NCBI GenBank assembly: GCA_003525075.1
Contig: DQFO01000021.1
Location: 48,255 to 112,254, forward strand
DNA from: Clostridiales bacterium
Lineage (GTDB): Bacteria > Bacillota > Clostridia > TANB77 > CAG-508
Direction of reading: 5' to 3'
Length of the DNA: 64,000 nucleotides
The position numbers were made by a program, and so were the translations under genes. Below the pieces are notes generated by a model. It saw nothing but the letters and a program-made list of their open reading frames with translations, ran no database searches and had not been told where the DNA came from. Shown here piece after piece: positions 5,529-44,830 of the stretch; the first letter of the stretch is position 1, and each line of letters begins with the position of its first letter.

Positions 5529-6215
5529 TTATATTTCCTTAGTCATTTTTCTAAGCATTTTTTCATCTAATCCACTACATAATTCTCTTACAATATATAC
5601 AATGTTTTCTCTATATTCATTACTTAAGTTTTTTAATTTTATACACTGCAATCTGTGGTTTTCCATGTGTACTGCTAAATCTCCGTTTTCTAATAAGAAG
5701 TATAATTTATTGTCTGTCCATTCTTCTTTTAATTCAAGTGTTAAATAATTAAAGTATTCATCTTCTTCTTTTAACATTTCTTTTGTAAAAAATAATCTTG
5801 TCATTTTTAATGGTAAATTTATTTCTTTTAGAAGTTCAATTCCTTTTCTTAGTGAATATCCATCAAATGATGTTACATAATATAATTTGTCAAAACTTAG
5901 AGCTTCAAAATCTCTAACTCCATCAAAATTATCAGTATCAAGAAATATATATTCATATTCGAATTCATTTTCAGTGTCAACACCTAAATAATGGGCTATT
6001 TGTTCTATATTTTCAAAACCTATAGCAACATCAATGTCTTCAAATGTTGTTACATAAGATACTGTAGGTAATATATTAGGAACTATATATTTTGCTTTTT
6101 GATCCTTTGTAGAATCTATGAATAAAACTTTTTTTCCATTTCTTGTTAATAATTTGGATATATCCAAAATTAGATCTGTTTTATCATATACCCCTATAAA
6201 TCCAACTTTCTTCAT
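5529..6215 (-). CDS. second ParA/MinD-like protein with a degenerate P-loop (TadZ-like)
   Basis: Start taken as MKKVGFIGVYDK at position 6215, which has an AAAGGA RBS 8 nt upstream. The listed ORF extends 14 codons further. Overall MinD-fold layout but no canonical KGGxGKT. Confidence 0.4.
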   Translation of the reverse strand: MKKVGFIGVYDKTDLILDISKLLTRNGKKVLFIDSTKDQKAKYIVPNILPTVSYVTTFEDIDVAIGFENIEQIAHYLGVDTENEFEYEYIFLDTDNFDGVRDFEALSFDKLYYVTSFDGYSLRKGIELLKEINLPLKMTRLFFTKEMLKEEDEYFNYLTLELKEEWTDNKLYFLLENGDLAVHMENHRLQCIKLKNLSNEYRENIVYIVRELCSGLDEKMLRKMTKEI

Positions 6216-6279
6216 GTTATTATCCTTTCTATATAATAATTCATATAGTAAGGGCATAATATGCCCTTACTATAACTAA

Positions 6280-7383
6280 TTATTCTCCTAGTGAATCTAA
6301 ATATTTTTGTCTTGCATCTTGTGCATTAGAAATACTTTCTTCCATTGAATTTTTTACATTTGTATCATAGTCAGCTCCAATTTGTTGTTCTAAGTATCTT
6401 CTTGCATTTGTTGCTGATGTTGTATATCTCTTCTTTAATTCTTCTACTGCACTTGATACTATATTTGGATTTGATACATTTCCGTTTGAATCTGTTATTA
6501 ATGCTGTTACAGAATCATTTGGTCTATATGTTGGTACAGCTGCATCTTGTATTCCTGCTTCTTTGTATTTTGTTGCATATAATTTTGCACCATTAATTCC
6601 GGCAGCTTCTACTATTGCACTAGACATTGCTAAAATTTCATCTTCTCTTAATGTCATTCTTATTGTATCTGCTAAACGTCCTTCTGCTCCCATTGGTATT
6701 TCAACTATTTTTTTTGAAACAACTATGTAATTTTGTCCATTTGGTAGCATTAATCTTATATCAACATAATCTCCATCTGTTAAATCTACTGGTAAAGATA
6801 CAACATTATATTCCTCTACTCTTACATCATTTGAAACAATATTATCAGTTTGTTGAACCATATTTGGTGTTACTACTGTATTTTTTTTCATATCTAATTT
6901 TGCTACTACTGGTACATTGTTTAATTCAATATATTGTTTTGTTGTTGATGTAGGTTTTATATAATAATTTTCCGTTGTGTCTTCTTTGTAAACTCTTACT
7001 ATGCTATCTGATCCATTAGCATCTGTTTGTGTATAATAAAGACCTTCTTCATCTCTATTTAACATAGTTCCATCTTTTGTTTGCATATACCAACTTTCAA
7101 TAACTGATATTACTGATGTTGCATTTGCTGGTATTGTTGTTTGATCTACTGCTTTTAGGGCAAACATATCTTCTGTTATTTCTTCTCCTGATTTTACGTC
7201 TTGACTTAATACGTAAACCTTCTTTCTATTTGCATTTAATGTAGAAATCTCTGTATTCAATTTATTTACATAAAACAATAATAATGCTATTACAATTCCT
7301 GTTAATAATAGTGTTATTACTACTCCTAATATAAATGATGTTCTTGCTTTTTTTTGCATTGGGTTCATTGCCATTTTTTCCAC
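6280..7383 (-). CDS. CpaB/RcpC-like Flp-pilus assembly protein (N-terminal TM plus SAF-like domain) with a C-terminal extension
   Basis: An N-terminal TM segment is followed by VYVLSQDVKSGEEITEDMFALKAVD..IPANA. This matches the SAF/CpaB pattern of a hydrophobic beta-strand, charged turn and '..P..A'. GTG start with an AGGGAAGG RBS. First gene of the minus-strand cluster. Confidence 0.5.
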   Translation of the reverse strand: MEKMAMNPMQKKARTSFILGVVITLLLTGIVIALLLFYVNKLNTEISTLNANRKKVYVLSQDVKSGEEITEDMFALKAVDQTTIPANATSVISVIESWYMQTKDGTMLNRDEEGLYYTQTDANGSDSIVRVYKEDTTENYYIKPTSTTKQYIELNNVPVVAKLDMKKNTVVTPNMVQQTDNIVSNDVRVEEYNVVSLPVDLTDGDYVDIRLMLPNGQNYIVVSKKIVEIPMGAEGRLADTIRMTLREDEILAMSSAIVEAAGINGAKLYATKYKEAGIQDAAVPTYRPNDSVTALITDSNGNVSNPNIVSSAVEELKKRYTTSATNARRYLEQQIGADYDTNVKNSMEESISNAQDARQKYLDSLGE

Positions 7384-7529
7384 GTTCCTTCCCTATTTTT
7401 TAATTTATTTCTATTTTATTTTACAATATTTTTATACTAAAATCAACAAAATATTTCTATTGTAATATAAAATTAATGCTTTTGTAATATTAATGTAATA
7501 TTTCTTTAAAGCCTTTAGTTTACTACTAT

Positions 7530-8408
7530 TTACAAGTTTAAATCAAATATTTTATTAAGAATTATTGCTACTCCATCTTCATCATTTGTTGGTGCAATTA
7601 TATCTGCTGATTGTTTTACATATGGGGCACTTTCCCCCATTGCAACACCAAGTCCAGCATTTGTTATCATTTTTAAGTCATTGGCATTATCTCCAATTGT
7701 TACAACTTCCTCTTTTGATATATTCATTAAACCTATTATTTCTTCTAATGCATTCCATTTATCTACATCTTTAGCTGATACTTCTGTATAAAAGTATTCT
7801 AATGCTATTTCGTCTGTTCCCTGTTTTATTATTTTTCTAGACATGTGAGATACTTCTAATACTTCAATTTCAGATAATTCTTTTAGTTTTCTTACAATAG
7901 AATTAAATACAGTTTTATGTTCATCACAAATCATTATTTTTAGAATTTTTTCTTCTCTTTGTTCAAAATAATCATAAACATTTTCAACAATATTTATATG
8001 TGTCCTATTTTCATCTGGTTTTGTTAAATTATCTTTATAATAATATAATGTGTTATAGCTTAAGTTTTTGGCTATTATTCCATTTTCAGTATAAACATTA
8101 TAATAAATACTGTTTTCTTCACAAATTTTTATGATTTTCAATGCTTTTGTTTTGGATAAAATATTTTCGTATAATATTTTATTATTTTTTATATCATATG
8201 TAATAGCTCCATTTCCTGAAATGAAGTATTTATTACTATTAATTTCTTTTGAAAACCTTTTTACAGATGTGATTGCTCTTCCTGATGCAATCATTACTTC
8301 AACACCTTTTTCTTGTGCTTTTGATATTGCTTTCTTTGTTTTTTCAGTAATTATTCCATATTGGTTCAGCATTGTTCCATCAAGATCTATTGCTACTAAC
8401 TTATACAT
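7530..8408 (-). CDS. Cof-type HAD-IIB family hydrolase
   Basis: Motif I VAIDLDGTML, ASGR motif, and a C-terminal GDNANDLKM...GVAMG typical of Cof/YidA phosphatases. Confidence 0.8.
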   Translation of the reverse strand: MYKLVAIDLDGTMLNQYGIITEKTKKAISKAQEKGVEVMIASGRAITSVKRFSKEINSNKYFISGNGAITYDIKNNKILYENILSKTKALKIIKICEENSIYYNVYTENGIIAKNLSYNTLYYYKDNLTKPDENRTHINIVENVYDYFEQREEKILKIMICDEHKTVFNSIVRKLKELSEIEVLEVSHMSRKIIKQGTDEIALEYFYTEVSAKDVDKWNALEEIIGLMNISKEEVVTIGDNANDLKMITNAGLGVAMGESAPYVKQSADIIAPTNDEDGVAIILNKIFDLNL

Positions 8409-8614
8409 ATCTTTCTCCTATCTTTTGTTTTAATTTTCAAACATATTTAATTTTAATAAATTTATCTGTTTTTTTCAAGATATTTTTGTAATTTATTTGT
8501 TTTTTCCAAAAACTTCTTGTTTATTTTATTAAAAATTGCACATTCTATTCTTAGAAAAGTTTTTACTTTTCAAAAAGAAATTAAATGATGTTATATATGA
8601 CGGAGGTGAATACA

Positions 8615-8815
8615 ATGGCAAATTCAAACAGCAATAAGAAATTAGTACCAGAAGCAATGAGCGCTTTAGACAAATTCAAATATGAAGTAGCTTCTGAAAT
8701 TGGTGTTACTTTAAAAGATGGTTATAATGGTGATATATCAGCAAAAGATGCTGGTAAAATAGGTGGAAACATGGTTAGAAAAATGATCCAACAAGTTGAA
8801 AACAACATGAAATAG
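8615..8815 (+). CDS. small acid-soluble spore protein, alpha/beta type
   Basis: LVPEAMSALDKFKYEVASEIGV...GDISAKDAGKIGGNMVRKMI is the SASP alpha/beta signature. GGAGGTG RBS at 8602-8608. The listed ORF begins at an upstream in-frame ATG (8585). Confidence 0.85.
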   Translation: MANSNSNKKLVPEAMSALDKFKYEVASEIGVTLKDGYNGDISAKDAGKIGGNMVRKMIQQVENNMK

Positions 8816-8900
8816 TTTTTTTAATAATGTATTCATAATATATTTATTAGGCAGAAGTATTATTCTTGGTTTTAGATATGTTTTGGTTTAAACATACATA

Positions 8901-8932
8901 AAGGCAGGAGTTGTGCTCCTGCCTTTATTTTA
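8901..8932. terminator. bidirectional Rho-independent terminator between sspA (+) and the cpsB-like gene (-)
   Basis: Perfect 10-bp stem aaggcaggag/ctcctgcctt with a 5-nt loop, followed by a T-rich tract. Confidence 0.7.
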
Positions 8933-9638
8933 TAATATCTTCATTATTTAAAACTTTTTGAGGATTAATTTCTGTAAATTCAATAAATTCTTCGTCTGAA
9001 ATAACTTTTTTTAATTTTTTAATAATTTTAGGAATTTTATTATATACTTGTTCTGGTTTATGGACATCTGATCCAAAAAAACTAATCAAATTATTTTTCA
9101 ATAAAATTTTTAATGTTTTTTTAGCTTTGCCACCATACATTCCTATTATACTACCAAAATTTGCTTGAAAAAGAGCTCCCATTTCTTCTAATTCAAATAA
9201 ATAATCTGGATTTTCTTGAACAAATGGATATCTTTCTGGATGAGCAATAATTGGTATATATCCATTTTCAATTAATCTATATATAACTTCTTTATCATTC
9301 ATAGGTTTTGTATTAATTAATGGAAATTCAAAAAGAACATATCTTGTATTATTTATAGATGATGCCTGTCCATTTTTTAATAAATCTATCATATTATTAG
9401 TAATATATATTTCATTTCCAAGGTATAATTCAATTCCATCAACAGAATCTTGTACCTCTTTTAATAATCGTTTTCTTTCTTGCTCATTACATTCATAATA
9501 ATTTTCCATATAATGTGATGTTGATATAATTTTGGTAAAACCTACATTTTTTGCTTCATTTACCATATAAATTGATTGTTCTAAATTTCTAGAACCATCA
9601 TCAATTCCTGGTAATATATGTGAATGAAAATCTATCAT
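8925..9638 (-). CDS. CpsB/YwqE-type PHP-domain protein-tyrosine phosphatase
   Basis: MIDFHSHILPGIDDGS N-terminus and conserved His/Asp pattern of Mn-dependent CpsB phosphatases. Lies downstream of the BY-kinase gene. Confidence 0.85.
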   Translation of the reverse strand: MIDFHSHILPGIDDGSRNLEQSIYMVNEAKNVGFTKIISTSHYMENYYECNEQERKRLLKEVQDSVDGIELYLGNEIYITNNMIDLLKNGQASSINNTRYVLFEFPLINTKPMNDKEVIYRLIENGYIPIIAHPERYPFVQENPDYLFELEEMGALFQANFGSIIGMYGGKAKKTLKILLKNNLISFFGSDVHKPEQVYNKIPKIIKKLKKVISDEEFIEFTEINPQKVLNNEDIIK

Positions 9639-13540: not shown

Positions 13541-14371
13541 TTATTTAATTTCGATATTTTTATATCTTATTAAACTTATTGTTCCAATAGCAACTGCTAC
13601 TAATACAATTAATGCTACTGTTGTTGCACCTGTTTTTGGTAATTCTTTTTCTTGTGATACTGTTGTGTCTTGTGTTGTTTTTTCTGTTGTATTATCTGTT
13701 TTTGCTGTATTTGTTATTATTTCTAATTCATCTTTTTTGTTATCATCTTTCGTTGTTTCTGTATTTTTTTGATCATCTTTCGTTGTTTCTGTATTTTTTT
13801 GTTCATCTTTTGTTTCTTCTGTTTTGTCTGCCTTTGGAACAACAGCTACTTGTGTTACTAATTTAGGTGTGTCATATTCATTTTTTCCATCTGTAAGTTC
13901 TTCAACTTTTAAAACAACTCCTGTTGTTGTTACATTTTCCAATCCTTCTTTGAATGTAAGTGTTATTTCTGCAACATCTTCACCATCTTTTGGTGTTCTA
14001 TTTGCTTCTACAAGAAGTCTACCAGATTCTTCACTAAATTGTACTGTATAACCGTTTAAAGCTTTTATATCATTTTGTGTTAATTGATTAAAATATACAT
14101 CACTATATTCAAAAATTCCCTTAAACATACATATTCCACTTGTATCTATTGACTCTAATTTATCATATCCTATTACTACTTTTACCTCTTTTGTTACATC
14201 TTCTACTTCAACTTTTTCTGTTGTCTTTAGTGTTATACTTGAGTCTTTTGAAGTTGATTCACTTGTTGTTTGTGTTGTTTGTTCTGTACTTTTTGTTTCG
14301 TCTGCAAATACATTAACTCCTACACTTATTAGCATCATTGCTATAATTATACTTGCTAATATTTTTTTCAT
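13541..14371 (-). CDS. LPKTG cell-wall-anchored protein carrying a cohesin-like domain and a Thr/Lys/Asp-rich repeat linker
   Basis: Signal peptide. GICMFKGIFEYSDVYFN and VQFSEESGRLL...TPKDGEDVAEITLTFK resemble the cohesin motifs GIANCDFVYSYDPNVLE and FLFAEDSG...ITKDGVFATIVAKVK. The C-terminus carries LPKTG, a TM segment and RYK. Confidence 0.6.
   Translation of the reverse strand: MKKILASIIIAMMLISVGVNVFADETKSTEQTTQTTSESTSKDSSITLKTTEKVEVEDVTKEVKVVIGYDKLESIDTSGICMFKGIFEYSDVYFNQLTQNDIKALNGYTVQFSEESGRLLVEANRTPKDGEDVAEITLTFKEGLENVTTTGVVLKVEELTDGKNEYDTPKLVTQVAVVPKADKTEETKDEQKNTETTKDDQKNTETTKDDNKKDELEIITNTAKTDNTTEKTTQDTTVSQEKELPKTGATTVALIVLVAVAIGTISLIRYKNIEIK
13741..13830. repeat. tandem ~30-bp direct repeats (about 3 copies, the third degenerate) inside the cohesin-protein gene. 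They encode TKD(E/D)QKNTET repeats.
   Basis: gatcatctttcgttgtttctgtattttttt occurs twice in tandem, followed by a diverged third copy. Confidence 0.8.
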
Positions 14372-14489
14372 TTTTCTTTTGCCTCCTTCTTTTTATTTAT
14401 CCATTAAATTGTAACATTTTTTGCCGTATTCGACAATATTTTTTTGTTTAAGTTTTTGTTACATTTGTGTTACAAAATTATTACAAAAA

Positions 14490-14535
14490 ATAAAACTTAG
14501 AATTGTCATTTTAAAACAATCAATTCTAAGTTTTT
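14490..14535 (-). terminator. Rho-independent terminator after the RloB-like gene
   Basis: Perfect 10-bp inverted repeat cttagaattg/caattctaag, followed on the minus strand by a U-run. Confidence 0.65.
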
Positions 14536-14537
14536 TC

Positions 14538-15197
14538 TTATAATATCTCACAATCATTTAGTATTTTTTCAATACTTTCATTTATTTCTAAATCTGGATT
14601 TTCTTTATAATAAATATATTTTCCATATTTTATTTGTTTGTTATATTCTTTGTTATGATCTCTTATTTTTTCAGCTCTTTTTATTGCATTTATAATATCT
14701 TCCAATGTAATTTGTTCAACTACTCTCTTAAAGTTTTTTTCTTCTTTATATTCATCAAGACTTTTAAAATCTTCATCAAATATTTCATTTATATATTTTA
14801 AATATTGTTTTTTATCTGTTAATGGTCCTTTTAAATCTTTTTTGTGCAAAATTATCCAAAGTTCAAATGTAAAATTACTATATCCTAATTTATATTTTAA
14901 ACTATTATTAATTTTCGAAACTTCTTTCATATCATCTAAAATCTTATGAAATTTTTTTACATCATCTTCTGAATCACTTTCATAATCACATAAATGATAT
15001 ACCTCTTCTTCAGTTATATTTGCTAATGTTTTGGCATATCTTGTTGGCATTAATTTTTTATGTTTTAATTTTACTGTACAAGTTGCTTTAGAACAGTTAT
15101 TAATTAATTTTTGTAAATAGTCTAAATACCAGCCTTCTGTATCTCCTTCAACAGAAAAATAATAATTTTTATTTGTTTTTAATTTTTTTGCACACAT
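14538..15197 (-). CDS. RloB-family protein (AbiLii-like, OLD/Toprim-related putative nuclease)
   Basis: The N-terminus YYFSVEGDTEGWYL matches the RloB motif hhhVCEGxxTExxYh. Immediately downstream of the AAA_21 ATPase gene with a 9-bp gap. Confidence 0.6.
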   Translation of the reverse strand: MCAKKLKTNKNYYFSVEGDTEGWYLDYLQKLINNCSKATCTVKLKHKKLMPTRYAKTLANITEEEVYHLCDYESDSEDDVKKFHKILDDMKEVSKINNSLKYKLGYSNFTFELWIILHKKDLKGPLTDKKQYLKYINEIFDEDFKSLDEYKEEKNFKRVVEQITLEDIINAIKRAEKIRDHNKEYNKQIKYGKYIYYKENPDLEINESIEKILNDCEIL

Positions 15198-15206
15198 TTA
15201 TATTTA

Positions 15207-16541
15207 TTACTTCCTTTCTTGATTCATATATTCTTCAAATATATCTGAAAAGTCAACATCAGTGATTGCACCATATTTGTTTATAAAATAATTTTTTAAA
15301 TAATTTTCTCCATTTCTTACTCCATTTTTTCCACTTGTTCCAAAATCTGATAATGAATATAATATACTTTCTTTTTCTTCTTTTTCTACAAATTTTATTT
15401 CATCTCTTCTAAAAAGATTTTTATTTAAGAAAATTGGATTATGTGTATTAAATATTAATTGAGCTCCATTTTTGTTTATTTCATCATTATGGAAAATTTT
15501 TATAAAACTCATTATTATCATTGGATGCAAAGACGCATCTAACTCATCTACTAATAATGTTGCACCTCTTTTCATTGTTGCCATCATAAGTGGAAAAATA
15601 TCTAATAATCTAAGTGTTCCAAATGACTCAAAAAACTCTGCTGGAACAACTATACCTTTTTCATCTATAGTTTTTATTACAGATACTGGAAATATTAAGT
15701 CTTTTTTATCTGTTATTGGATATGCTATTTTTTCAGATGTTAATCCAATTTCTTTTACAGCTTCATTTATTTGTGGATTAGAGAATAATTTTTTATTTGA
15801 ATTTTTTATATCTATTCTTGATTCTAAGTTTGGTGCATAATGTATTTTATCTGCATGATATATAATTCTTAGTTTATCTTGAAACCAATTTGTTATAATT
15901 TCATAAATCTTTTTACTATATAATGTTTTAAACATTACATTTAATAGTAATTCTTGTGGCTCTATATTTGAATTTATAATATCTTTTGCCACTTCTTCAT
16001 GAAAGTTTTCTATTAATAATTCTTTTTCTTTTAAATATTCTAAATTTTCTATTTGAATTTTTTCATTTCTTATATAAATATTATTTCCATCGATTTTAAG
16101 TTTTTCTTCTAATATTTTTCTTTTATCCTTTTCTTTAGATAATAATTTTTCTGTTAAAAAAGTTATACTATATTCAATTATCATATTATTAGTTAAAAAT
16201 TTTATATAAAAATATGTTGGTTCATTTTCTTTGCTGTCTATATGTGGTATAAAATCTAATTTTTCTGTTGCTATATTAATACTTGTTAAATCATCTGCAT
16301 CTTTTATATTTCCTCTTAATACGATTGCTTTAAATACTTGTAATCCACCTATTAAGTTTGTTTTTCCTGATGAGTTTGGTCCATATATAACAGATGATGA
16401 TAATGCTTTCTCTTCTTTGTTATTTGCTTTTTCTTTTAACAAACTATATTCTAAGTCTTTTATTTTTTGAGCTGGCGTCATTTTAAATTCAACTAAATTT
16501 CTAAATGATTTGAAATTTTTCATTTTAAATTCTAATAACAT
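15207..16541 (-). CDS. AAA_21/ABC-like ATPase (AbiLi/RloA-like)
   Basis: N-terminus MKNFKSFRNL. Walker A GPNSSGKTNL. Walker B and D-loop LLVDELDASLHP. Confidence 0.65.
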   Translation of the reverse strand: MLLEFKMKNFKSFRNLVEFKMTPAQKIKDLEYSLLKEKANNKEEKALSSSVIYGPNSSGKTNLIGGLQVFKAIVLRGNIKDADDLTSINIATEKLDFIPHIDSKENEPTYFYIKFLTNNMIIEYSITFLTEKLLSKEKDKRKILEEKLKIDGNNIYIRNEKIQIENLEYLKEKELLIENFHEEVAKDIINSNIEPQELLLNVMFKTLYSKKIYEIITNWFQDKLRIIYHADKIHYAPNLESRIDIKNSNKKLFSNPQINEAVKEIGLTSEKIAYPITDKKDLIFPVSVIKTIDEKGIVVPAEFFESFGTLRLLDIFPLMMATMKRGATLLVDELDASLHPMIIMSFIKIFHNDEINKNGAQLIFNTHNPIFLNKNLFRRDEIKFVEKEEKESILYSLSDFGTSGKNGVRNGENYLKNYFINKYGAITDVDFSDIFEEYMNQERK

Positions 16542-16723
16542 ATTTTACCCTTCTTTCGATTTTGCGAGTTTTTTGCAAAATCTATTATCATTTTACTATT
16601 ATTTTATGACATTGTCAATAAATTATTGCACATTTTATGTAAATTATAATATTTATTGTTACTAATTTTGTAAAATTATGTCACATCAATACTAAGCATT
16701 AGCGTAAATAAATATTTTTTAAT

Positions 16724-17860
16724 TTATTCAAAAATATCCTCTGTTATTATATCCCATAATAATTGCATTAAAACAGCTGTATCTCCTAAACACAAATAAT
16801 CAGAACTTTCATTATTAATGTGTGCAATATTATTTCTCATATTTAATTCGTTTGGATCAAATATTAAATTAAACAACTTTGTATATTGTTTTTTTATTAA
16901 AGAATTCGCATATGGTGAAACTATAACACTTCCAAGTGTTAATTTATTTTTTATCTTTTTATTATCTTTTTTATTAATATATTCATGCAAAATCAATAGT
17001 TTTATATCTTCATCTTCTTCATTGATAATACGATATTTTATAAACATTTTATAGATATTTGCTCTAATAAATTTTTCACTTGCAAATATTGTTTTATCTC
17101 CTTTTTCAGTAATAATATTATAATATTGTTTTTCTTCATCAGTTAATTTTATATTTTCTTTTTCAATTTTATCTTTTAATTCTTTCATTAAGTTTTTTAG
17201 GATTTTTGAATCTAATTGAATTATAAGAAATCTTTCTATTAATGTTGGTAATATGAATGCTGTTCCATATGCATGTTCATCTCTTATACATTCAATTTTA
17301 TTATTTGTTAATGGCTCTGCCATTGGAAATACTACACCTCTATATTCAATCATTCTTATAATTTGTAAATTTTGTTGTTTTTTAGGTGGATTTTCAAATA
17401 TTCCTTTATATTCATTTCCTTTTAATGTTTCAAAATATTCGTTTAATGCTCTTATATATATTTCATTAAATTTTATTGTTGCTTCATTTGTAATTATTGG
17501 TACTCTTTCTCTATATTCTTTTGCTATTAATTTTTTATGATAATTTATACATATATTTCCTAAATAATAAACTAAATCATTTATTTTTATTTTCTTTTTT
17601 ATAAGTTCGTCTTTTTCTTCTTTTGTTTCAAAGTGTCCTAATGGTTCTGGACATATTGTGTTTTTTGCATCATATTTTAGTATTTTATAAAATTCATCTA
17701 ATATTTCTAATTTTATATTTATTTCTTCGTTCTTACTTTTGGCTTTTATTAGTTTTTCTACTTTTTCATCAATGTATTTTAACATGGGTTCTGGATTGCT
17801 TAAATGTAATTGCATATTATTTAACATTACATATTCTTTTTGATATAAATATTCTTCCAT
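16724..17860 (-). CDS. hypothetical protein with a C-terminal HEPN-like Rx4H motif (possible Abi-type RNase)
   Basis: The C-terminus NMRNNIAHINNES fits the R[NHQ]xxxH HEPN motif. No other family signature. Has its own AGGAGG RBS. Confidence 0.35.
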   Translation of the reverse strand: MEEYLYQKEYVMLNNMQLHLSNPEPMLKYIDEKVEKLIKAKSKNEEINIKLEILDEFYKILKYDAKNTICPEPLGHFETKEEKDELIKKKIKINDLVYYLGNICINYHKKLIAKEYRERVPIITNEATIKFNEIYIRALNEYFETLKGNEYKGIFENPPKKQQNLQIIRMIEYRGVVFPMAEPLTNNKIECIRDEHAYGTAFILPTLIERFLIIQLDSKILKNLMKELKDKIEKENIKLTDEEKQYYNIITEKGDKTIFASEKFIRANIYKMFIKYRIINEEDEDIKLLILHEYINKKDNKKIKNKLTLGSVIVSPYANSLIKKQYTKLFNLIFDPNELNMRNNIAHINNESSDYLCLGDTAVLMQLLWDIITEDIFE

Positions 17861-17875
17861 ATTTTTCCTCCTATT

Positions 17876-17903
17876 TTAAAAGATGCAACATTATTTTGTT
17901 GCA
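17876..17903 (-). terminator. hairpin (terminator/attenuator) between the GH39-like gene and the HEPN-like gene
   Basis: Perfect 10-bp stem aagatgcaac/gttgcatctt with an 8-nt loop. It overlaps the GH gene stop and sits directly upstream of the RBS of the next gene. Confidence 0.5.
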
Positions 17904-20900
17904 TCTTGGTTTAATAACATTAATCTCATTTTTACTAAGTCTTTTAAATTAATTTTTCCGTCAAAATTGCAGTCTGCAGCTAGCATTTCATTTTCATCTA
18001 AATTATTTCCATCTAAGAAATACTTTCTTATTTTTACTAAGTCTTTTAAATTTAATTTTCCGTCTTTATTCAAGTCTCCTGTAACTATGAGTGTATATTT
18101 ATCTCCTGCTGATGTTGTTAATATATCTCCTGTTGCAATACTATCTGTATTAGAAATTTCTTTTTCATTTCTTGCTATTTTATATGTTATTCCTAATTTT
18201 AGTTTATTATCAAAATCTGATTTTATAGTTTGTTCTGATATGTTTTTTATTATATTGTCTTGAATAATATAATTTTGATTATTGTTTTCCATTATTTGGA
18301 ATGATATTTGTGTTTTGTTTCCTGCTTTGTCTATTACAGTTAATGTGTAAAAGCCTTCTTCTGTTAATGTTGTTCCTGATTTAAAGTTCTTTACTTCTTC
18401 ACCATTTAAAATTAGTTTTATAGTATCTATGTTTTCATCTGTTATTGTTGGTGTTATTTTGCTTGTGTATAGTTTTCCGTCTACTACTCCATTTATTATT
18501 GGTGATGTTTTGTCAATGTTTGTTACTTTTGCTGTTATTTGTTTTGCTTGTCCTTTTATTGTATATTCAAATGTAAAGCTTCCGTTTTGATCAAATACGT
18601 ATTCTTTACTATTTGAGTTGTTTGTTATTTGTATTTCTGCATTTGTTTTTATTGTTGCTTTTACAGATTTATTTGTTATGTTTGTTTCTGAATATTCTAT
18701 TGTTACTGGATTTTGAGCAATATATTCATTTATATTATTGTTTATTTGAATACTTGCAAATTTATTAGCCCAATTTGCTAATAATTGTGCATGTAAATTA
18801 TTGCTTATTATTAAACCTGCTTTGATGTCATTTTGTTCTTCTAAACTGTTTATATAATCGGATTTTTCATAACACTCTTTACTGAATTGCAATATTTTTG
18901 TTGGATATATTATTTCTACATCTGTATTAGTATTTATTAAATTTTCTGTTTCATCTATTTTTTGTTTTGTTGTTGTTAATTCTGATGAATCAACATTTGC
19001 TTCATCTAATGTTTTCATTACACTATTTATTGTATTGTTCACACTAACTGTTACTAGATCTTCATATGAATTTCCTATATCATTTATCATATCTAGCATT
19101 GAACTTATTTTTACTGGTTCTGCTTTTAATTGTCCTTCTTCATATGCTTTTAATATTATATCTCCTAGTTCGTAATGTCTTTTCATTGCTGTTATTGCTG
19201 TATTTTGCATTAATTTTTGTGTGTTTGCTACTGATTGACTATAATTTTGTCTTTGGTTTATTTTCTCTTCAAAACCTGAAATTTGTAATATTTCTGTTGC
19301 GAATTTTTCTTTGAATTCATCATATTTACTTGTTGCAACATTTGATATTGCTTTATAAAAATAATTATAGTCTACATCATACAAATAGACTGGAGATGTT
19401 GTTATTGTTAATTTTCCGTTTTCGTCTGGTTGTATGTCTTTTCCATATAGGTCTTTTGCAGTAAAATCTTTATAATCTATTTGTATATTATTTGTACTGT
19501 TTTCTGACCATGTTATTATTATTGGCTTTCCGCCTTTGTCATATACATGTCCTTCTAGTCCTTCTGCTATGTTTACTGTTCCTATGTATTCAGCTCCATT
19601 TGTATTTTGAAGATAATTTTTCATTGCATAGTATGTTTTTTTGGGTAAATTTTTCTTATCTATTAAACCATACTGAGAATTATCAAAATCATCAATAAAA
19701 TTATAAAGAAATGAATAATCTATTCCTTGTTTTTCATTAGTTATTGTCTGCTCTATTATTCTTTCACCCCTAATATCTTCATTCTCAACAACTCTACTAT
19801 TTATTCCATACTCTGTTATATACAGTCTTTGAAATCCTCCAAGTTCATTAATTATACTTTTATGACTATTATTCTTATCCTTTAGCCATTTCATATTTTC
19901 AGAAGACGAATATACATGATACGAAAAAGCCTTTGAATTTACATATGCCCCATTATTGGCAATTTCTTGTATATATTGTTCAGATTTTTCAGTCTGATAT
20001 GGAGTTGCAGTTGCCCCTGAAACAACATTATTAAAATTCAAACAATTTACCTTTTGAACCATTAATGAATACCAATTCATTGCTTGATTAGAAAACCACT
20101 TTACATTAGGCTCATTCCAAATCTCAACTCCTATAATTTTATTTCCATAATATTTTTTTACTTCATTTGCATACTCTAAAAAATTTTTAAGTTCATTTTC
20201 ATTTGAAATCTGGTAATCATTTCCTAACCTTTTAGATGTATTATCAAATAAAATAACCAGAATGTTAATTCCACTACTTTTAATCTTTTCAAACCAATTG
20301 TCAATTTTTTCAAAATTATATTTTTTATTATTTTCTATTTGATTCCATTGAATCGAATTTCGTATATTTTTTATTCCTAAATTTCTTAACAATTCAAAAC
20401 TATTATTAATATCATCATATCCTTCAATATAATGTGTTCCTATTCCTATACATGATAATTCATCTAAAAACTGCTTTTCATATGGTTTAATAATATAAAC
20501 ATTTCGTAGAAACTCTACTTTTTTTTCATTATTCATATAAATATATATCTTTAGTTCTTTTTTTCCTTCATCGCTTTCTAAAATTTTAAATTGATTTTTG
20601 ACTTTTTTCAATTCTATTTCTTCTTTTAATGTTTCATCAAGAAATATTTTTGCCATATAACTATTTTCTGAATTATAGTTTTCTATGCTTATATAACCAT
20701 TAATTTCATTATTATATATTACTTCTTTTGTAGTTAACTCTATTGTATATATTATTTCCTCTGAAACAGTTTGATATAACTCAAAAATATTATAAACTTT
20801 TATTTTTTTTTCTTCATTTCCTTCCTCAATTGAAATATGTCCATTTAACACAAAGAAAAATAATGTTGGAAAAAACCAAACTATAGCAAATAGTATTATA

Positions 20901-21019
20901 ATTACTTTTATCATTTGTTTCTTATTTATCTTTCCTATTCCTAGTAAATCCATTTTTTTCCCTTCAATTAATAAAACTATCTTTGATATTATTATATATA
21001 TTTTTTTTATTTTTTTCAA
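17891..21019 (-). CDS. large secreted/membrane-anchored glycoside hydrolase (clan GH-A, GH39/PslG-like) with beta-rich middle domains and a C-terminal type-I dockerin
   Basis: The IGVEIWNEPNVKWF motif carries the clan GH-A acid/base 'NEP'. N-terminal TM. The C-terminus has two Ca-binding repeats, DLNKDGKLNLKD and DCNFDGKINLKD, typical of dockerin. Confidence 0.6.
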   Translation of the reverse strand: MKKIKKIYIIISKIVLLIEGKKMDLLGIGKINKKQMIKVIIILFAIVWFFPTLFFFVLNGHISIEEGNEEKKIKVYNIFELYQTVSEEIIYTIELTTKEVIYNNEINGYISIENYNSENSYMAKIFLDETLKEEIELKKVKNQFKILESDEGKKELKIYIYMNNEKKVEFLRNVYIIKPYEKQFLDELSCIGIGTHYIEGYDDINNSFELLRNLGIKNIRNSIQWNQIENNKKYNFEKIDNWFEKIKSSGINILVILFDNTSKRLGNDYQISNENELKNFLEYANEVKKYYGNKIIGVEIWNEPNVKWFSNQAMNWYSLMVQKVNCLNFNNVVSGATATPYQTEKSEQYIQEIANNGAYVNSKAFSYHVYSSSENMKWLKDKNNSHKSIINELGGFQRLYITEYGINSRVVENEDIRGERIIEQTITNEKQGIDYSFLYNFIDDFDNSQYGLIDKKNLPKKTYYAMKNYLQNTNGAEYIGTVNIAEGLEGHVYDKGGKPIIITWSENSTNNIQIDYKDFTAKDLYGKDIQPDENGKLTITTSPVYLYDVDYNYFYKAISNVATSKYDEFKEKFATEILQISGFEEKINQRQNYSQSVANTQKLMQNTAITAMKRHYELGDIILKAYEEGQLKAEPVKISSMLDMINDIGNSYEDLVTVSVNNTINSVMKTLDEANVDSSELTTTKQKIDETENLINTNTDVEIIYPTKILQFSKECYEKSDYINSLEEQNDIKAGLIISNNLHAQLLANWANKFASIQINNNINEYIAQNPVTIEYSETNITNKSVKATIKTNAEIQITNNSNSKEYVFDQNGSFTFEYTIKGQAKQITAKVTNIDKTSPIINGVVDGKLYTSKITPTITDENIDTIKLILNGEEVKNFKSGTTLTEEGFYTLTVIDKAGNKTQISFQIMENNNQNYIIQDNIIKNISEQTIKSDFDNKLKLGITYKIARNEKEISNTDSIATGDILTTSAGDKYTLIVTGDLNKDGKLNLKDLVKIRKYFLDGNNLDENEMLAADCNFDGKINLKDLVKMRLMLLNQDATK

Positions 21020-42343: not shown

Positions 42344-44284
42344 TTAAGTATTTGCTGTTGCTTCTACTTTTTGTGTGTTTTCATTTGTTTCCTTTTTTTC
42401 GTTAACAATCTTTTTATTAACTTCATCTGGCTCTTTATATGTTGGAACAACTTGTTTCATTACTTGTTTTACTTCTTCTTCAAGATTCATGTCATTATCT
42501 TTTATTTTACTTAATTTGTTTAGTTTACTTTCTAATTCTTCCATTCCTAAGTTCATTGGTTGTGATACAAAGATTTTATTATGTTTTGTTGCTGTTAATC
42601 CTTCTTCTGCCATTAATAATTCTTCATATAATTTTTCTCCTTCTCTTAGTCCTGTGAATTGAATTGGAATATCTACTCCTGGCTCATATCCAGATAATTT
42701 TATTAGGCTTACTGCTAAATCATAAATTTTTACTGGTTTTCCCATATCTAATACAAATATTTCTCCACCTTCTGCATATGTTATTGCTTGTAATATTAAT
42801 CCAACTGCTTCTGGTATTGTCATGAAAAATCTTGTTATATCTTTATGTGTTACTGTTACAGGTCCGCCTTCTGCTATTTGTTTTTTGAATAATGGTATTA
42901 CTGATCCATTGCTTCCTAATACGTTTCCAAATCTTACTGCAACATAGTCTGTTTTACTTACTTTATTTTTTGCTTGTATTATCATTTCACAAACTCTTTT
43001 TGATGCTCCCATTATATTTGTTGGGTTTACTGCTTTGTCTGTTGATATTAATACAAATCTTTCTACTCCAAATTCATCTGCACAATTTGCTACATTATAT
43101 GTTCCAAATATATTGTTTTTTATTGCTTCTAATGGGCTATTTTCCATTAATGGTACATGTTTATGTGCTGCTGCATGGAATACTAGTTTTGGTGAATATT
43201 TTTCAAAAACTTTTCTTAGTCTTTCTTTATCTCTTACACTTCCAACTATTGCTTCTATTTTTGTTTTTGGATAATGTGCATCTAATTCCATTTGAATGTC
43301 ATATAAATTATTTTCATATATGTCAAATATTATTAATTTTGCTGGATTGTATTTCATTATTTGTCTACAAAGTTCAGATCCTATTGATCCTCCTCCACCT
43401 GTAACTAATACATTTTTTCCTTTTATTAGGTCTGTAATGTTTTTATTATCAAGTTTTATTGTGTCTCTTCCAAGTAAGTCTTCTATTTCTACATCTCTTA
43501 AGTTATTCATTACTCCACCTTTTTTCATCATTTCTTCTGTACTTGGTAATACTCTTGTTCTTACTCCTGTTGTTTGACATATTTCTATTATATTTTTTCT
43601 TGATCTTTGTGTTATATTATCTATTGCTAAATAAATAATGTTTACATTTTTTTCTTTTACTATATCTGGAATATCATATCTTGTTCCTAATACTTTTACT
43701 CCTAGTATGCTTTTATTTAGTTTATTTTTATTGTCATCTATCATTCCAACAATATTATACTTATCTTTCATTGTGTTGTTAACAGCTAATATTATTTCTT
43801 TAGCTCCCATTCCTGCTCCAATTATTAATAAGTTTTCTATTTTGTTTGGTTCTTTTTCTGCATTTTTTGGTCTTTTTACATTTGACATTCTTGATAATAT
43901 TGATCTTCCAGCAATTCTATATAATACGAATATTCCTGATATGAATATTCCTGACAATATGTTTATTCTTGCTCCAAAATAATCGAATTTTAACATATTG
44001 CTTATTACTATCATTAATATTGTTGATAAAAATCCACTAATTAGATATTTAATGTAATCTTCTCCTATTTCATATCTTATCATATCCCTATACATTTGAA
44101 AAACATTTAAAAACACTTCATATACTAATACTGCAATACACATTTCTTTTGTAAATTCTAATAAATCTGTTATTTGTGTATTTAGGAATAATAATGATGT
44201 TACATAGCTTCCAATTACTACTATTACATCTATTAATACTAATGCTAAATGTCTATATTTTTTTGCTAAATTTATAATTTTCAT
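42344..44284 (-). CDS. membrane-anchored CapD/PglF/WbpM-type UDP-N-acetylglucosamine 4,6-dehydratase
   Basis: Four N-terminal TM helices. Rossmann motifs VLVTGGGGSIGSELCRQI and IIGAGMGAKE. SDR catalytic region. Confidence 0.85.
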   Translation of the reverse strand: MKIINLAKKYRHLALVLIDVIVVIGSYVTSLLFLNTQITDLLEFTKEMCIAVLVYEVFLNVFQMYRDMIRYEIGEDYIKYLISGFLSTILMIVISNMLKFDYFGARINILSGIFISGIFVLYRIAGRSILSRMSNVKRPKNAEKEPNKIENLLIIGAGMGAKEIILAVNNTMKDKYNIVGMIDDNKNKLNKSILGVKVLGTRYDIPDIVKEKNVNIIYLAIDNITQRSRKNIIEICQTTGVRTRVLPSTEEMMKKGGVMNNLRDVEIEDLLGRDTIKLDNKNITDLIKGKNVLVTGGGGSIGSELCRQIMKYNPAKLIIFDIYENNLYDIQMELDAHYPKTKIEAIVGSVRDKERLRKVFEKYSPKLVFHAAAHKHVPLMENSPLEAIKNNIFGTYNVANCADEFGVERFVLISTDKAVNPTNIMGASKRVCEMIIQAKNKVSKTDYVAVRFGNVLGSNGSVIPLFKKQIAEGGPVTVTHKDITRFFMTIPEAVGLILQAITYAEGGEIFVLDMGKPVKIYDLAVSLIKLSGYEPGVDIPIQFTGLREGEKLYEELLMAEEGLTATKHNKIFVSQPMNLGMEELESKLNKLSKIKDNDMNLEEEVKQVMKQVVPTYKEPDEVNKKIVNEKKETNENTQKVEATANT

Positions 44285-44480: not shown

Positions 44481-44830
44481 GGGGATGTAATGGTTTCGAC
44501 ATTATATCTGAAGCATGAATAGCGAGTAGTGGATTCTCGTTTGCCACTATAAAAACGGGAAATTAAATATAAACGCTGATAATACAGAATTAGCATACGC
44601 TGCTTAGTTGCAACGTCGCCTCTAAAAGTATCCCCACATATTTTTAGTTGGTGTCATTTAGTGGGAAACAAAGCTATTTTTTCTATGGAAATAGTGGGTA
44701 TTTAATAGATATATTTTTTAATCGCTTGTTTGTTTGTGGTTATTAGATGAATATTAAAAATAAACTGCACTCGGAGAAGTTTGTGTGAATCTTATAGTGG
44801 ACAGGGGTTCGACTCCCCTCATCTCCACCA
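44481..44830 (+). ncRNA. ssrA: tmRNA (transfer-messenger RNA)
   Basis: The 5' end GGGGATGTAATGGTTTCGACA and the 3' end GGACAGGGGTTCGACTCCCCTCATCTCCACCA form a tRNA-Ala-like acceptor/T-arm with encoded CCA. The internal tag ORF ends ...GCATACGCTGCTTAG (..AYAA*). Confidence 0.85.

Follow-up and report, generated by a model that had tools for sequence, protein, structure and literature searches.

Do three adjacent genes inside a surface-polysaccharide region of a gut bacterium form one antiphage system, or do they merely share a location? We addressed this question in a 64,000-nucleotide stretch of contig DQFO01000021.1 (hereafter the window), which is identical to a human-gut metagenome contig (L009) and belongs to an uncultured Clostridiales bacterium with approximately 25% G+C and contigs of up to 1.6 Mb. 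A preliminary description had recognized here an AbiL-like pair next to a HEPN-motif protein. All three open reading frames (ORFs) lie where it had placed them, on the minus strand: AbiLii (14538..15197, 219 aa), a RloB-family TOPRIM-like putative nuclease; AbiLi (15207..16541, 444 aa), an ABC/Rad50-type ATPase of the AAA_21 family; and a third gene, which we call g3 (16724..17860, 378 aa), with an N-terminal region without family match and a predicted divergent C-terminal HEPN domain of the DUF4209/C6orf70 type. The stop codon of AbiLi is separated by 9 bp from the start of AbiLii, and a 182-bp spacer lies between the end of g3 and AbiLi. On its other side, g3 starts 30 bp past the stop codon of a gene encoding a 1042-aa dockerin protein and is preceded by the ribosome-binding site AGGAGG, as described before. 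The locus as a whole is probably best explained by an independent AbiL operon and a stand-alone HEPN gene, both placed at a defence site at the end of a capsular polysaccharide (cps) block.

The assignment of the AbiL pair relies on matches of both proteins above the gathering scores of their families. AbiLi matches AAA_21 (PF13304; 6.4e-30, 105.7 bits, gathering score 27) and the PADLOC AbiLi model (PDLC02335; 3.9e-70), and AbiLii matches RloB (PF13707; 52.2 bits, gathering score 31.5) and the PADLOC AbiLii model (PDLC02337; 1.3e-12). The AriA model (2.3e-28) and the other ABC-ATPase defence models score far below the AbiLi model. As hidden Markov model comparisons, the matches of the ATPase and of the RloB protein are far beyond chance. 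Together with the adjacency, common orientation and ATPase-first order of the two genes, they bear out the AbiLi/AbiLii (RloA/RloB) architecture that had been read from motifs. Judged by sequence, the segment 14538..16541 is a standard two-gene AbiL module, an ordinary example of a known system with a predicted antiphage role.

The motifs on which the earlier reading was based, namely MKNFKSF, GPNSSGKT, LLVDELD, YYFSVEGDTEGW and RNNIAH, can all be read directly in the sequence. In AbiLi, the Walker A motif GPNSSGKT occupies residues 54-61 (16359..16382, minus strand), and the Walker B motif LLVDELD residues 329-335 (15537..15557, minus strand), followed by the D-loop ASLHP. When AbiLi was aligned with plasmid relatives and an OLD ATPase (four sequences), the conserved positions were Walker A G54-K60, S306/T309, E333, LHP338-340, Q361 and T366-H367; thus the Walker A motif, the signature-like SxGT, the Walker B/D-loop DELDxxLHP, Q361 and T366-H367 are all intact. 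In AbiLii, the TOPRIM-type glutamate motif EGDTE lies at residues 17-21 (15135..15149, minus strand). The corresponding three-sequence alignment returned E17, G18, T20, E21, D71, S107, FELW111-114, L117 and H118 as invariant, in the pattern EGxxTE, D71, S-x3-FELW-x2-LH. According to these two small alignments, the catalytic residues of both proteins are intact. Both AbiL genes are under purifying selection, and the ratio of nonsynonymous to synonymous diversity (pN/pS) of AbiLi within the species is 0.11.

Comparison with known systems places the pair close to AbiL of Lactococcus lactis pND861 and to RloA/RloB of Campylobacter, which likewise combine an AAA_21/Rad50-like ABC ATPase of approximately 450 aa with an adjacent, co-oriented RloB TOPRIM-like protein of approximately 210 aa. 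Distant plasmid relatives (at most 30% identity) show the same layout, ATPase and then RloB. Unlike the pND861 and Campylobacter examples, the pair in the window is chromosomal, fixed in its species and hosted within a capsule locus of a gut Clostridia genome of about 25% G+C, and therein lies its interest, as an example from a very prevalent uncultured human-gut bacterium. The combination of ABC ATPase and TOPRIM nuclease is shared with PARIS (AriA/AriB) and with OLD nucleases of classes 1-4, and AbiL falls in the same ATPase tree as PARIS and the OLD family (PMC11464382). The window pair does not belong to PARIS: AbiLi prefers its own model to that of AriA by the wide difference given above, and the effector matches RloB/AbiLii only, not the DUF4435 of AriB. 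It also differs from class-1 OLD nucleases, since its ATPase and TOPRIM genes are separate rather than fused. AbiL has been described as a two-component ABC-ATPase and TOPRIM system, with a mechanism presumed to be PARIS-like (PMC11464382, PMC13064643), and the sensor-plus-released-effector mechanism of PARIS and OLD is the best available analogy. By this analogy, AbiLi would be the infection sensor and the keeper of the TOPRIM-like effector AbiLii; upon a phage trigger, AbiLii would be released or activated, nucleic acid would be cut and the infection aborted.

The signals surrounding the pair suggest that it is a separate transcription unit. In the 182-bp spacer upstream of AbiLi we found a sigma-70-like promoter, TTGACA-17-TAAAAT (16590..16618, minus strand), with 11 of 12 consensus positions; this is a consensus match only, and sites of this kind are not enriched across the whole region. 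Between the -10 hexamer and the ribosome-binding site of AbiLi lies a palindrome, GATTTTGC-N9-GCAAAATC (16558..16582; inverted repeat 8+8), with a folding energy of -8.2 kcal/mol (z -3.25; 0 of 200 shuffles as good), which is possibly an operator for autoregulation or a hairpin in the 5' untranslated region. Past the 3' end of AbiLii, a hairpin that resembles an intrinsic terminator, CTTAGAATTG...CAATTCTAAG followed by a U-run (14485..14530, minus strand; -16 kcal/mol, z -4.21, 0 of 200 shuffles folding as well), would close the operon. It was missed by the first repeat scan because its stem is A+T-rich. Scanning positions 12-22 kb against Rfam returned no family besides a sub-threshold chance match to a microRNA.

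The third protein required a different approach. Its RNNIAH motif (16820..16837, minus strand), an Rx4H HEPN-type motif, was said to end the ORF; it is present, at residues 342-347 and therefore 31 residues before the C-terminus. An Rx4H motif also appears in 14.5% of shuffles of the g3 protein, and the motif alone is weak evidence for a HEPN domain. What lifts it above chance is its conservation among the members of the g3 family. The initial search for homologues returned near-identical proteins of the same species only, so that we used a search against 1.8 billion cluster representatives at 50% identity, which yielded 128 clusters. In an alignment of 51 full-length members, conservation reaches at least 90% at N340, R342, N343, H347 and E209, 48 members retain RNxxxH, and R342, N343 and H347 are invariant in the 13 closest relatives. 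DUF4209 (PF13910) is matched by 36 of the 51 members at E ≤ 0.01 (best 2.9e-7). Anantharaman et al. (2013, PMC3710099) include DUF4209/C6orf70 among the HEPN families for which an active site is predicted. A model of g3 built with AlphaFold2 from the alignment has high confidence scores (predicted local distance difference test, pLDDT, 90.2; predicted template modelling score 0.89) and replaced a single-sequence model that was discarded (pLDDT 42). Within the species, pN/pS of g3 is 0.19, and exactly the same protein occurs on more than 680 contigs. At the family level, therefore, the conserved RNxxxH and the DUF4209 matches uphold the view that the third protein is of the HEPN type. These comparisons identify g3 as a divergent DUF4209/C6orf70-type HEPN protein and putative RNase with a large N-terminal region of unassigned family; the C-terminal domain spans about residues 198-378.

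In its C-terminal domain with the conserved RNxxxH, g3 thus resembles the DUF4209/C6orf70 (ERMARD) family. It differs from that family by scoring below the Pfam threshold, by its large N-terminal region and by its genomic niche: bacterial members are found in conflict operons related to restriction-modification (PMC3710099), whereas g3 relatives close cps blocks at the 3' end and adjoin cassettes of the Abi and CBASS (cyclic oligonucleotide-based antiphage signalling system) types. In being stand-alone, in carrying an Rx4-6H HEPN domain and in residing in defence islands, g3 is also similar to the single-protein HEPN Abi toxins (AbiD/AbiF of the Abi_2 family, AbiJ, AbiU2, AbiV, RnlA/LsoA). Unlike these toxins, it matches neither Abi_2 nor the other Abi HEPN models in sequence, and we saw no conserved partner for it, whether antitoxin, RNA or MNT. 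Neither PF07751 (Abi_2) nor the PADLOC AbiD/F models returned a match for g3. Most likely, g3 would be a single-protein defence or toxin module, in which a C-terminal HEPN RNase domain is controlled by the large N-terminal region. The g3 family, which is small, uncharacterized and confidently modelled and which recurs where capsule serotype blocks end, next to swapping defence cassettes, is a more useful lead than the AbiL pair.

To what extent does g3 belong to AbiL? We collected 94 loci with g3 relatives, using alignment A2 to find them as alignment A1 was too diverse, and grouped them at 85% identity into 23 lineages, that of the window and 22 others. AbiL lies beside g3 in the species of the window and in none of the other 22 lineages. 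Relatives of AbiLi are present on 88 plasmids, none of which carries a member of the g3 family; on these plasmids the AbiL pairs stand alone, and the g3 family had no match in the plasmid and phage collections. The two units also differ in their history within the species. Synonymous diversity (pS) is 0.063 in g3 and 0.053 in the C-terminus of the dockerin gene, compared to 0.011 in AbiLi and approximately 0.01 in the sortase, wzz and cpsD genes. The drop between g3 and AbiLi is about six-fold, and the break falls within the 182-bp spacer. On this evidence, AbiL does not have g3 as a dedicated partner, and the two are best seen as independent units. This answers what the preliminary description had left undecided, that is whether the HEPN protein works with the AbiL pair: co-occurrence is confined to the species, and a three-gene unit is not supported. 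In one contig (L060, 2164..2775, corresponding to 17030..16419 of the window) similarity starts only inside g3, at about residue 277, and the upstream genes differ, a sign of recombination with a breakpoint inside g3.

Within the species, the three genes occur together. They are found in 20 of 20 long-contig contexts and in all metagenome contigs of the species that reach far enough, for a total of approximately 39 loci, and therefore they are not a strain-variable islet. Loci in which another glycosyltransferase block lies upstream also keep the trio; the breakpoints there are in the dockerin gene, near 18857 and 19635. The G+C content of the trio is not distinctive. It was proposed that the trio interrupts an otherwise continuous cps/eps region, perhaps as an islet acquired along with sortase and cohesin genes. 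The trio is indeed there, but five more genes lie between the flippase gene and wzz/cpsD/cpsB. They encode the dockerin protein of 1042 aa, a 276-aa protein that matches an LPXTG anchor weakly and below threshold, a 176-aa protein, a sortase and a 279-aa protein. A recent joint acquisition does not agree with the species-wide presence, the ordinary G+C content and the different pS of g3 and AbiLi, and nothing links either the AbiL pair or g3 to the sortase and anchor genes. In a more distant Clostridia metagenome-assembled genome (MAG; L011), a g3 homologue with 49% identity follows flippase and acyltransferase genes, with no AbiL at the homologue and no sortase detectable by tblastn. From this arrangement and from the differing histories it follows that the AbiL pair and g3 arrived separately.

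We then examined where g3 homologues reside. In at least 10 of the 23 lineages, cps genes lie upstream on the same strand, including flippase, glycosyltransferase, FrhB-like, pyruvyl-transferase and acyltransferase genes, and in three distant lineages (the window, L012 and L020) wzz-cpsD(-cpsB) lies downstream. Defence and mobile genes adjoin as well: SMODS with S_4TM, AbiH, a KAP NTPase (PADLOC PDC-S49) with a reverse transcriptase, an AAA ATPase with PDDEXK, as well as DUF2971, FRG, caspase, OLD, Abi_2, SocA and transposases. The SMODS nucleotidyltransferase and the S_4TM effector, a pair predicted to be minimal CBASS-like, lie directly downstream of the g3 homologue, at positions +1/+2, in 16 loci (L069, L070, L091 and 13 more). 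Within one g3 lineage, the position of g3 is constant and the downstream cassette changes; loci sister to those with SMODS and S_4TM have the KAP NTPase with reverse transcriptase, DUF2971 or FRG in its place. What the g3 family marks is thus the 3' terminus of the serotype-specific cps block, a site at which defence cassettes accumulate in gut Firmicutes, and g3 and AbiL would be neighbours because this end is such an accumulation site. In the window, g3 comes last in the block and is probably co-transcribed with it. The possibility, raised at the outset, that these are ordinary polysaccharide-locus genes thus applies in part to the HEPN gene, whose relatives recur in polysaccharide loci, and not to the AbiL pair. 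Apart from this recurrent location at the end of capsule blocks, nothing about the HEPN gene is unusual. If the association holds, capsule loci in gut Firmicutes would be combined hot spots of receptor variation and defence, and new defence cassettes could in practice be located by using the g3 family as a marker.

Some further observations on these neighbourhoods should be mentioned. The swap site downstream of g3 homologues is often flanked by PGM/PMM genes. AbiH lies directly upstream of a g3 homologue in L085 (591..2806, gap of 59 nt) and in L014 (6571..9071, gap of 131 nt). The two AbiH proteins are almost unrelated to each other and their g3 partners are 28% identical, so that AbiH and g3 may be a recurrent two-gene arrangement; we considered a conserved AbiH-g3 module and rejected it, as it is supported by only 2 of 23 lineages. 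In L021 an Abi_2 gene lies two genes away from the g3 homologue, and nine recurrent unannotated neighbours of g3 homologues had no match in PADLOC. The g3 homologues of an Agathobacter MAG (L016, 2682..3662) and of a Bacilli MAG (L017, 7983..8972) fall into one cluster of at least 85% identity and have different contexts, with a caspase and a flippase upstream, respectively. Provided that both MAGs were binned correctly, recent horizontal transfer is suggested.

Several results weigh against the explanation by two independent units at a capsule-linked defence site. The g3 protein itself reaches only 17.0 bits with DUF4209, under the gathering score of 22.3. Searches of PADLOC, NCBIfam and PHROGs returned no match for g3, sequence and profile searches of the PDB found nothing, and its N-terminal region has no family or fold match in the databases searched. 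The polysaccharide label takes in generic sugar-nucleotide enzymes and the counts of cps neighbours come without a formal background rate, while in 8 of the 23 lineages all neighbours are unannotated. No terminator was found between g3 and the AbiL operon, so that read-through could couple them. Finally, in L012 the g3 homologue directly follows a class-1 OLD nuclease (5904..8987; AAA_15 and OLD TOPRIM, 637 aa) inside another cps locus, a second case of an ABC-ATPase and TOPRIM system adjoining the g3 family and a sign of possible functional affinity. The last two observations, together with the adjacency, common orientation and co-occurrence of the trio in about 39 loci of the species, would fit a single functional system, in which the HEPN protein is a second effector or sensor alongside the AbiLi ATPase and the AbiLii nuclease. 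We consider this quite improbable, given that AbiL is absent from all the other g3 lineages, that plasmid AbiL pairs occur alone and without g3 relatives, that AbiL has its own promoter-like site past a six-fold break in diversity, and that AbiL is described as a two-component system (PMC13064643). Less probable still is the reading of the AbiL pair as a remnant, decaying or selfish and similar to a toxin-antitoxin system, with no current defence benefit. The RloB frame is indeed broken in L001 and L027, and AbiLi is anomalous, apparently replaced, in L036, L041 and L048. Both frameshifts, however, are 1-nt changes in A-runs and hence probable homopolymer errors, the contig names suggesting long-read or hybrid assembly, and the AbiLi anomalies are found on chimeric-looking contigs with 1.6-2.4x coverage; we discarded both, and set aside L051 as a noisy assembly. 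The low pN/pS of AbiLi and the integrity of every catalytic motif also speak against decay.

The link of g3 with capsule genes allows two more interpretations. According to one, the HEPN protein belongs functionally to the capsule locus and not to antiphage defence, acting as an RNA-level regulator of capsule expression, for example by cleaving transcripts from other polysaccharide loci, or as a toxin that stabilizes the serotype block against loss. The recurrence of co-oriented homologues at the 3' end of cps blocks, wzz-cpsD downstream in three distant lineages, the absence of room for a promoter in the 30 bp that separate g3 from the preceding gene of the block, and a diversity of g3 that matches the variable cps side are all in favour of it. 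Yet in other lineages (L013, L014, L016, L019, L021 and L025) there are no cps genes nearby and transposases or defence genes adjoin instead, defence cassettes swap directly next to g3 homologues, the conservation of the R/N/H residues of catalytic type is like that in toxin-type HEPN proteins, and no conserved cognate antitoxin or regulator partner accompanies the family. On balance, we regard a pure capsule function as rather unlikely. The other interpretation joins the two roles, and we hold it to be unlikely as well, if anything a shade more so: the g3 family would be a HEPN RNase coupled to the capsule, transcribed from the last position of the serotype-specific cps block and with an activity tied to the capsule, and may also mark a conserved swap site for defence cassettes. 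Such an RNase might link the state of capsule expression to abortive infection, enforce the exclusive expression of one polysaccharide locus, or stabilize the block. As the mark of a swap site, g3 may indicate where CBASS-like, KAP with reverse transcriptase, AbiH, AbiL and OLD cassettes are exchanged together with capsule types in gut Firmicutes. We retain the independent AbiL operon and the stand-alone HEPN gene as the preferred explanation.

The surface-protein genes around the trio show features of their own. The 1042-aa protein (17891..21019, minus strand) has a C-terminal type-I dockerin (Pfam, 6.2e-8) and a stretch, EIWNEPN, that when read from the sequence resembles a motif of clan-A glycoside hydrolases. 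Its N-terminal part varies with the cps type, the similarity to L007 and L008 ending at the two breakpoints mentioned above, and an alternative allele of the gene carries DUF4832. These features suggest a serotype-specific polysaccharide hydrolase on the cell surface. The 276-aa surface protein (13541..14371, minus strand) has a putative LPKTG-type anchor and a TETTKDDQKN-type repeat. Among strains, its length is 273, 276 or 286 aa and its pN/pS is approximately 1.2, which suggests diversifying selection. Encoded next to the sortase gene, it may be a cohesin-like partner of the dockerin protein. At the opposite side of the polysaccharide region, where 42344..44284 is the last large ORF, a transfer-messenger RNA (tmRNA) gene with the tag ADNTELAYAA (44481..44830, plus strand) lies approximately 200 bp past the far end. 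Genes for tmRNA are common integration sites.

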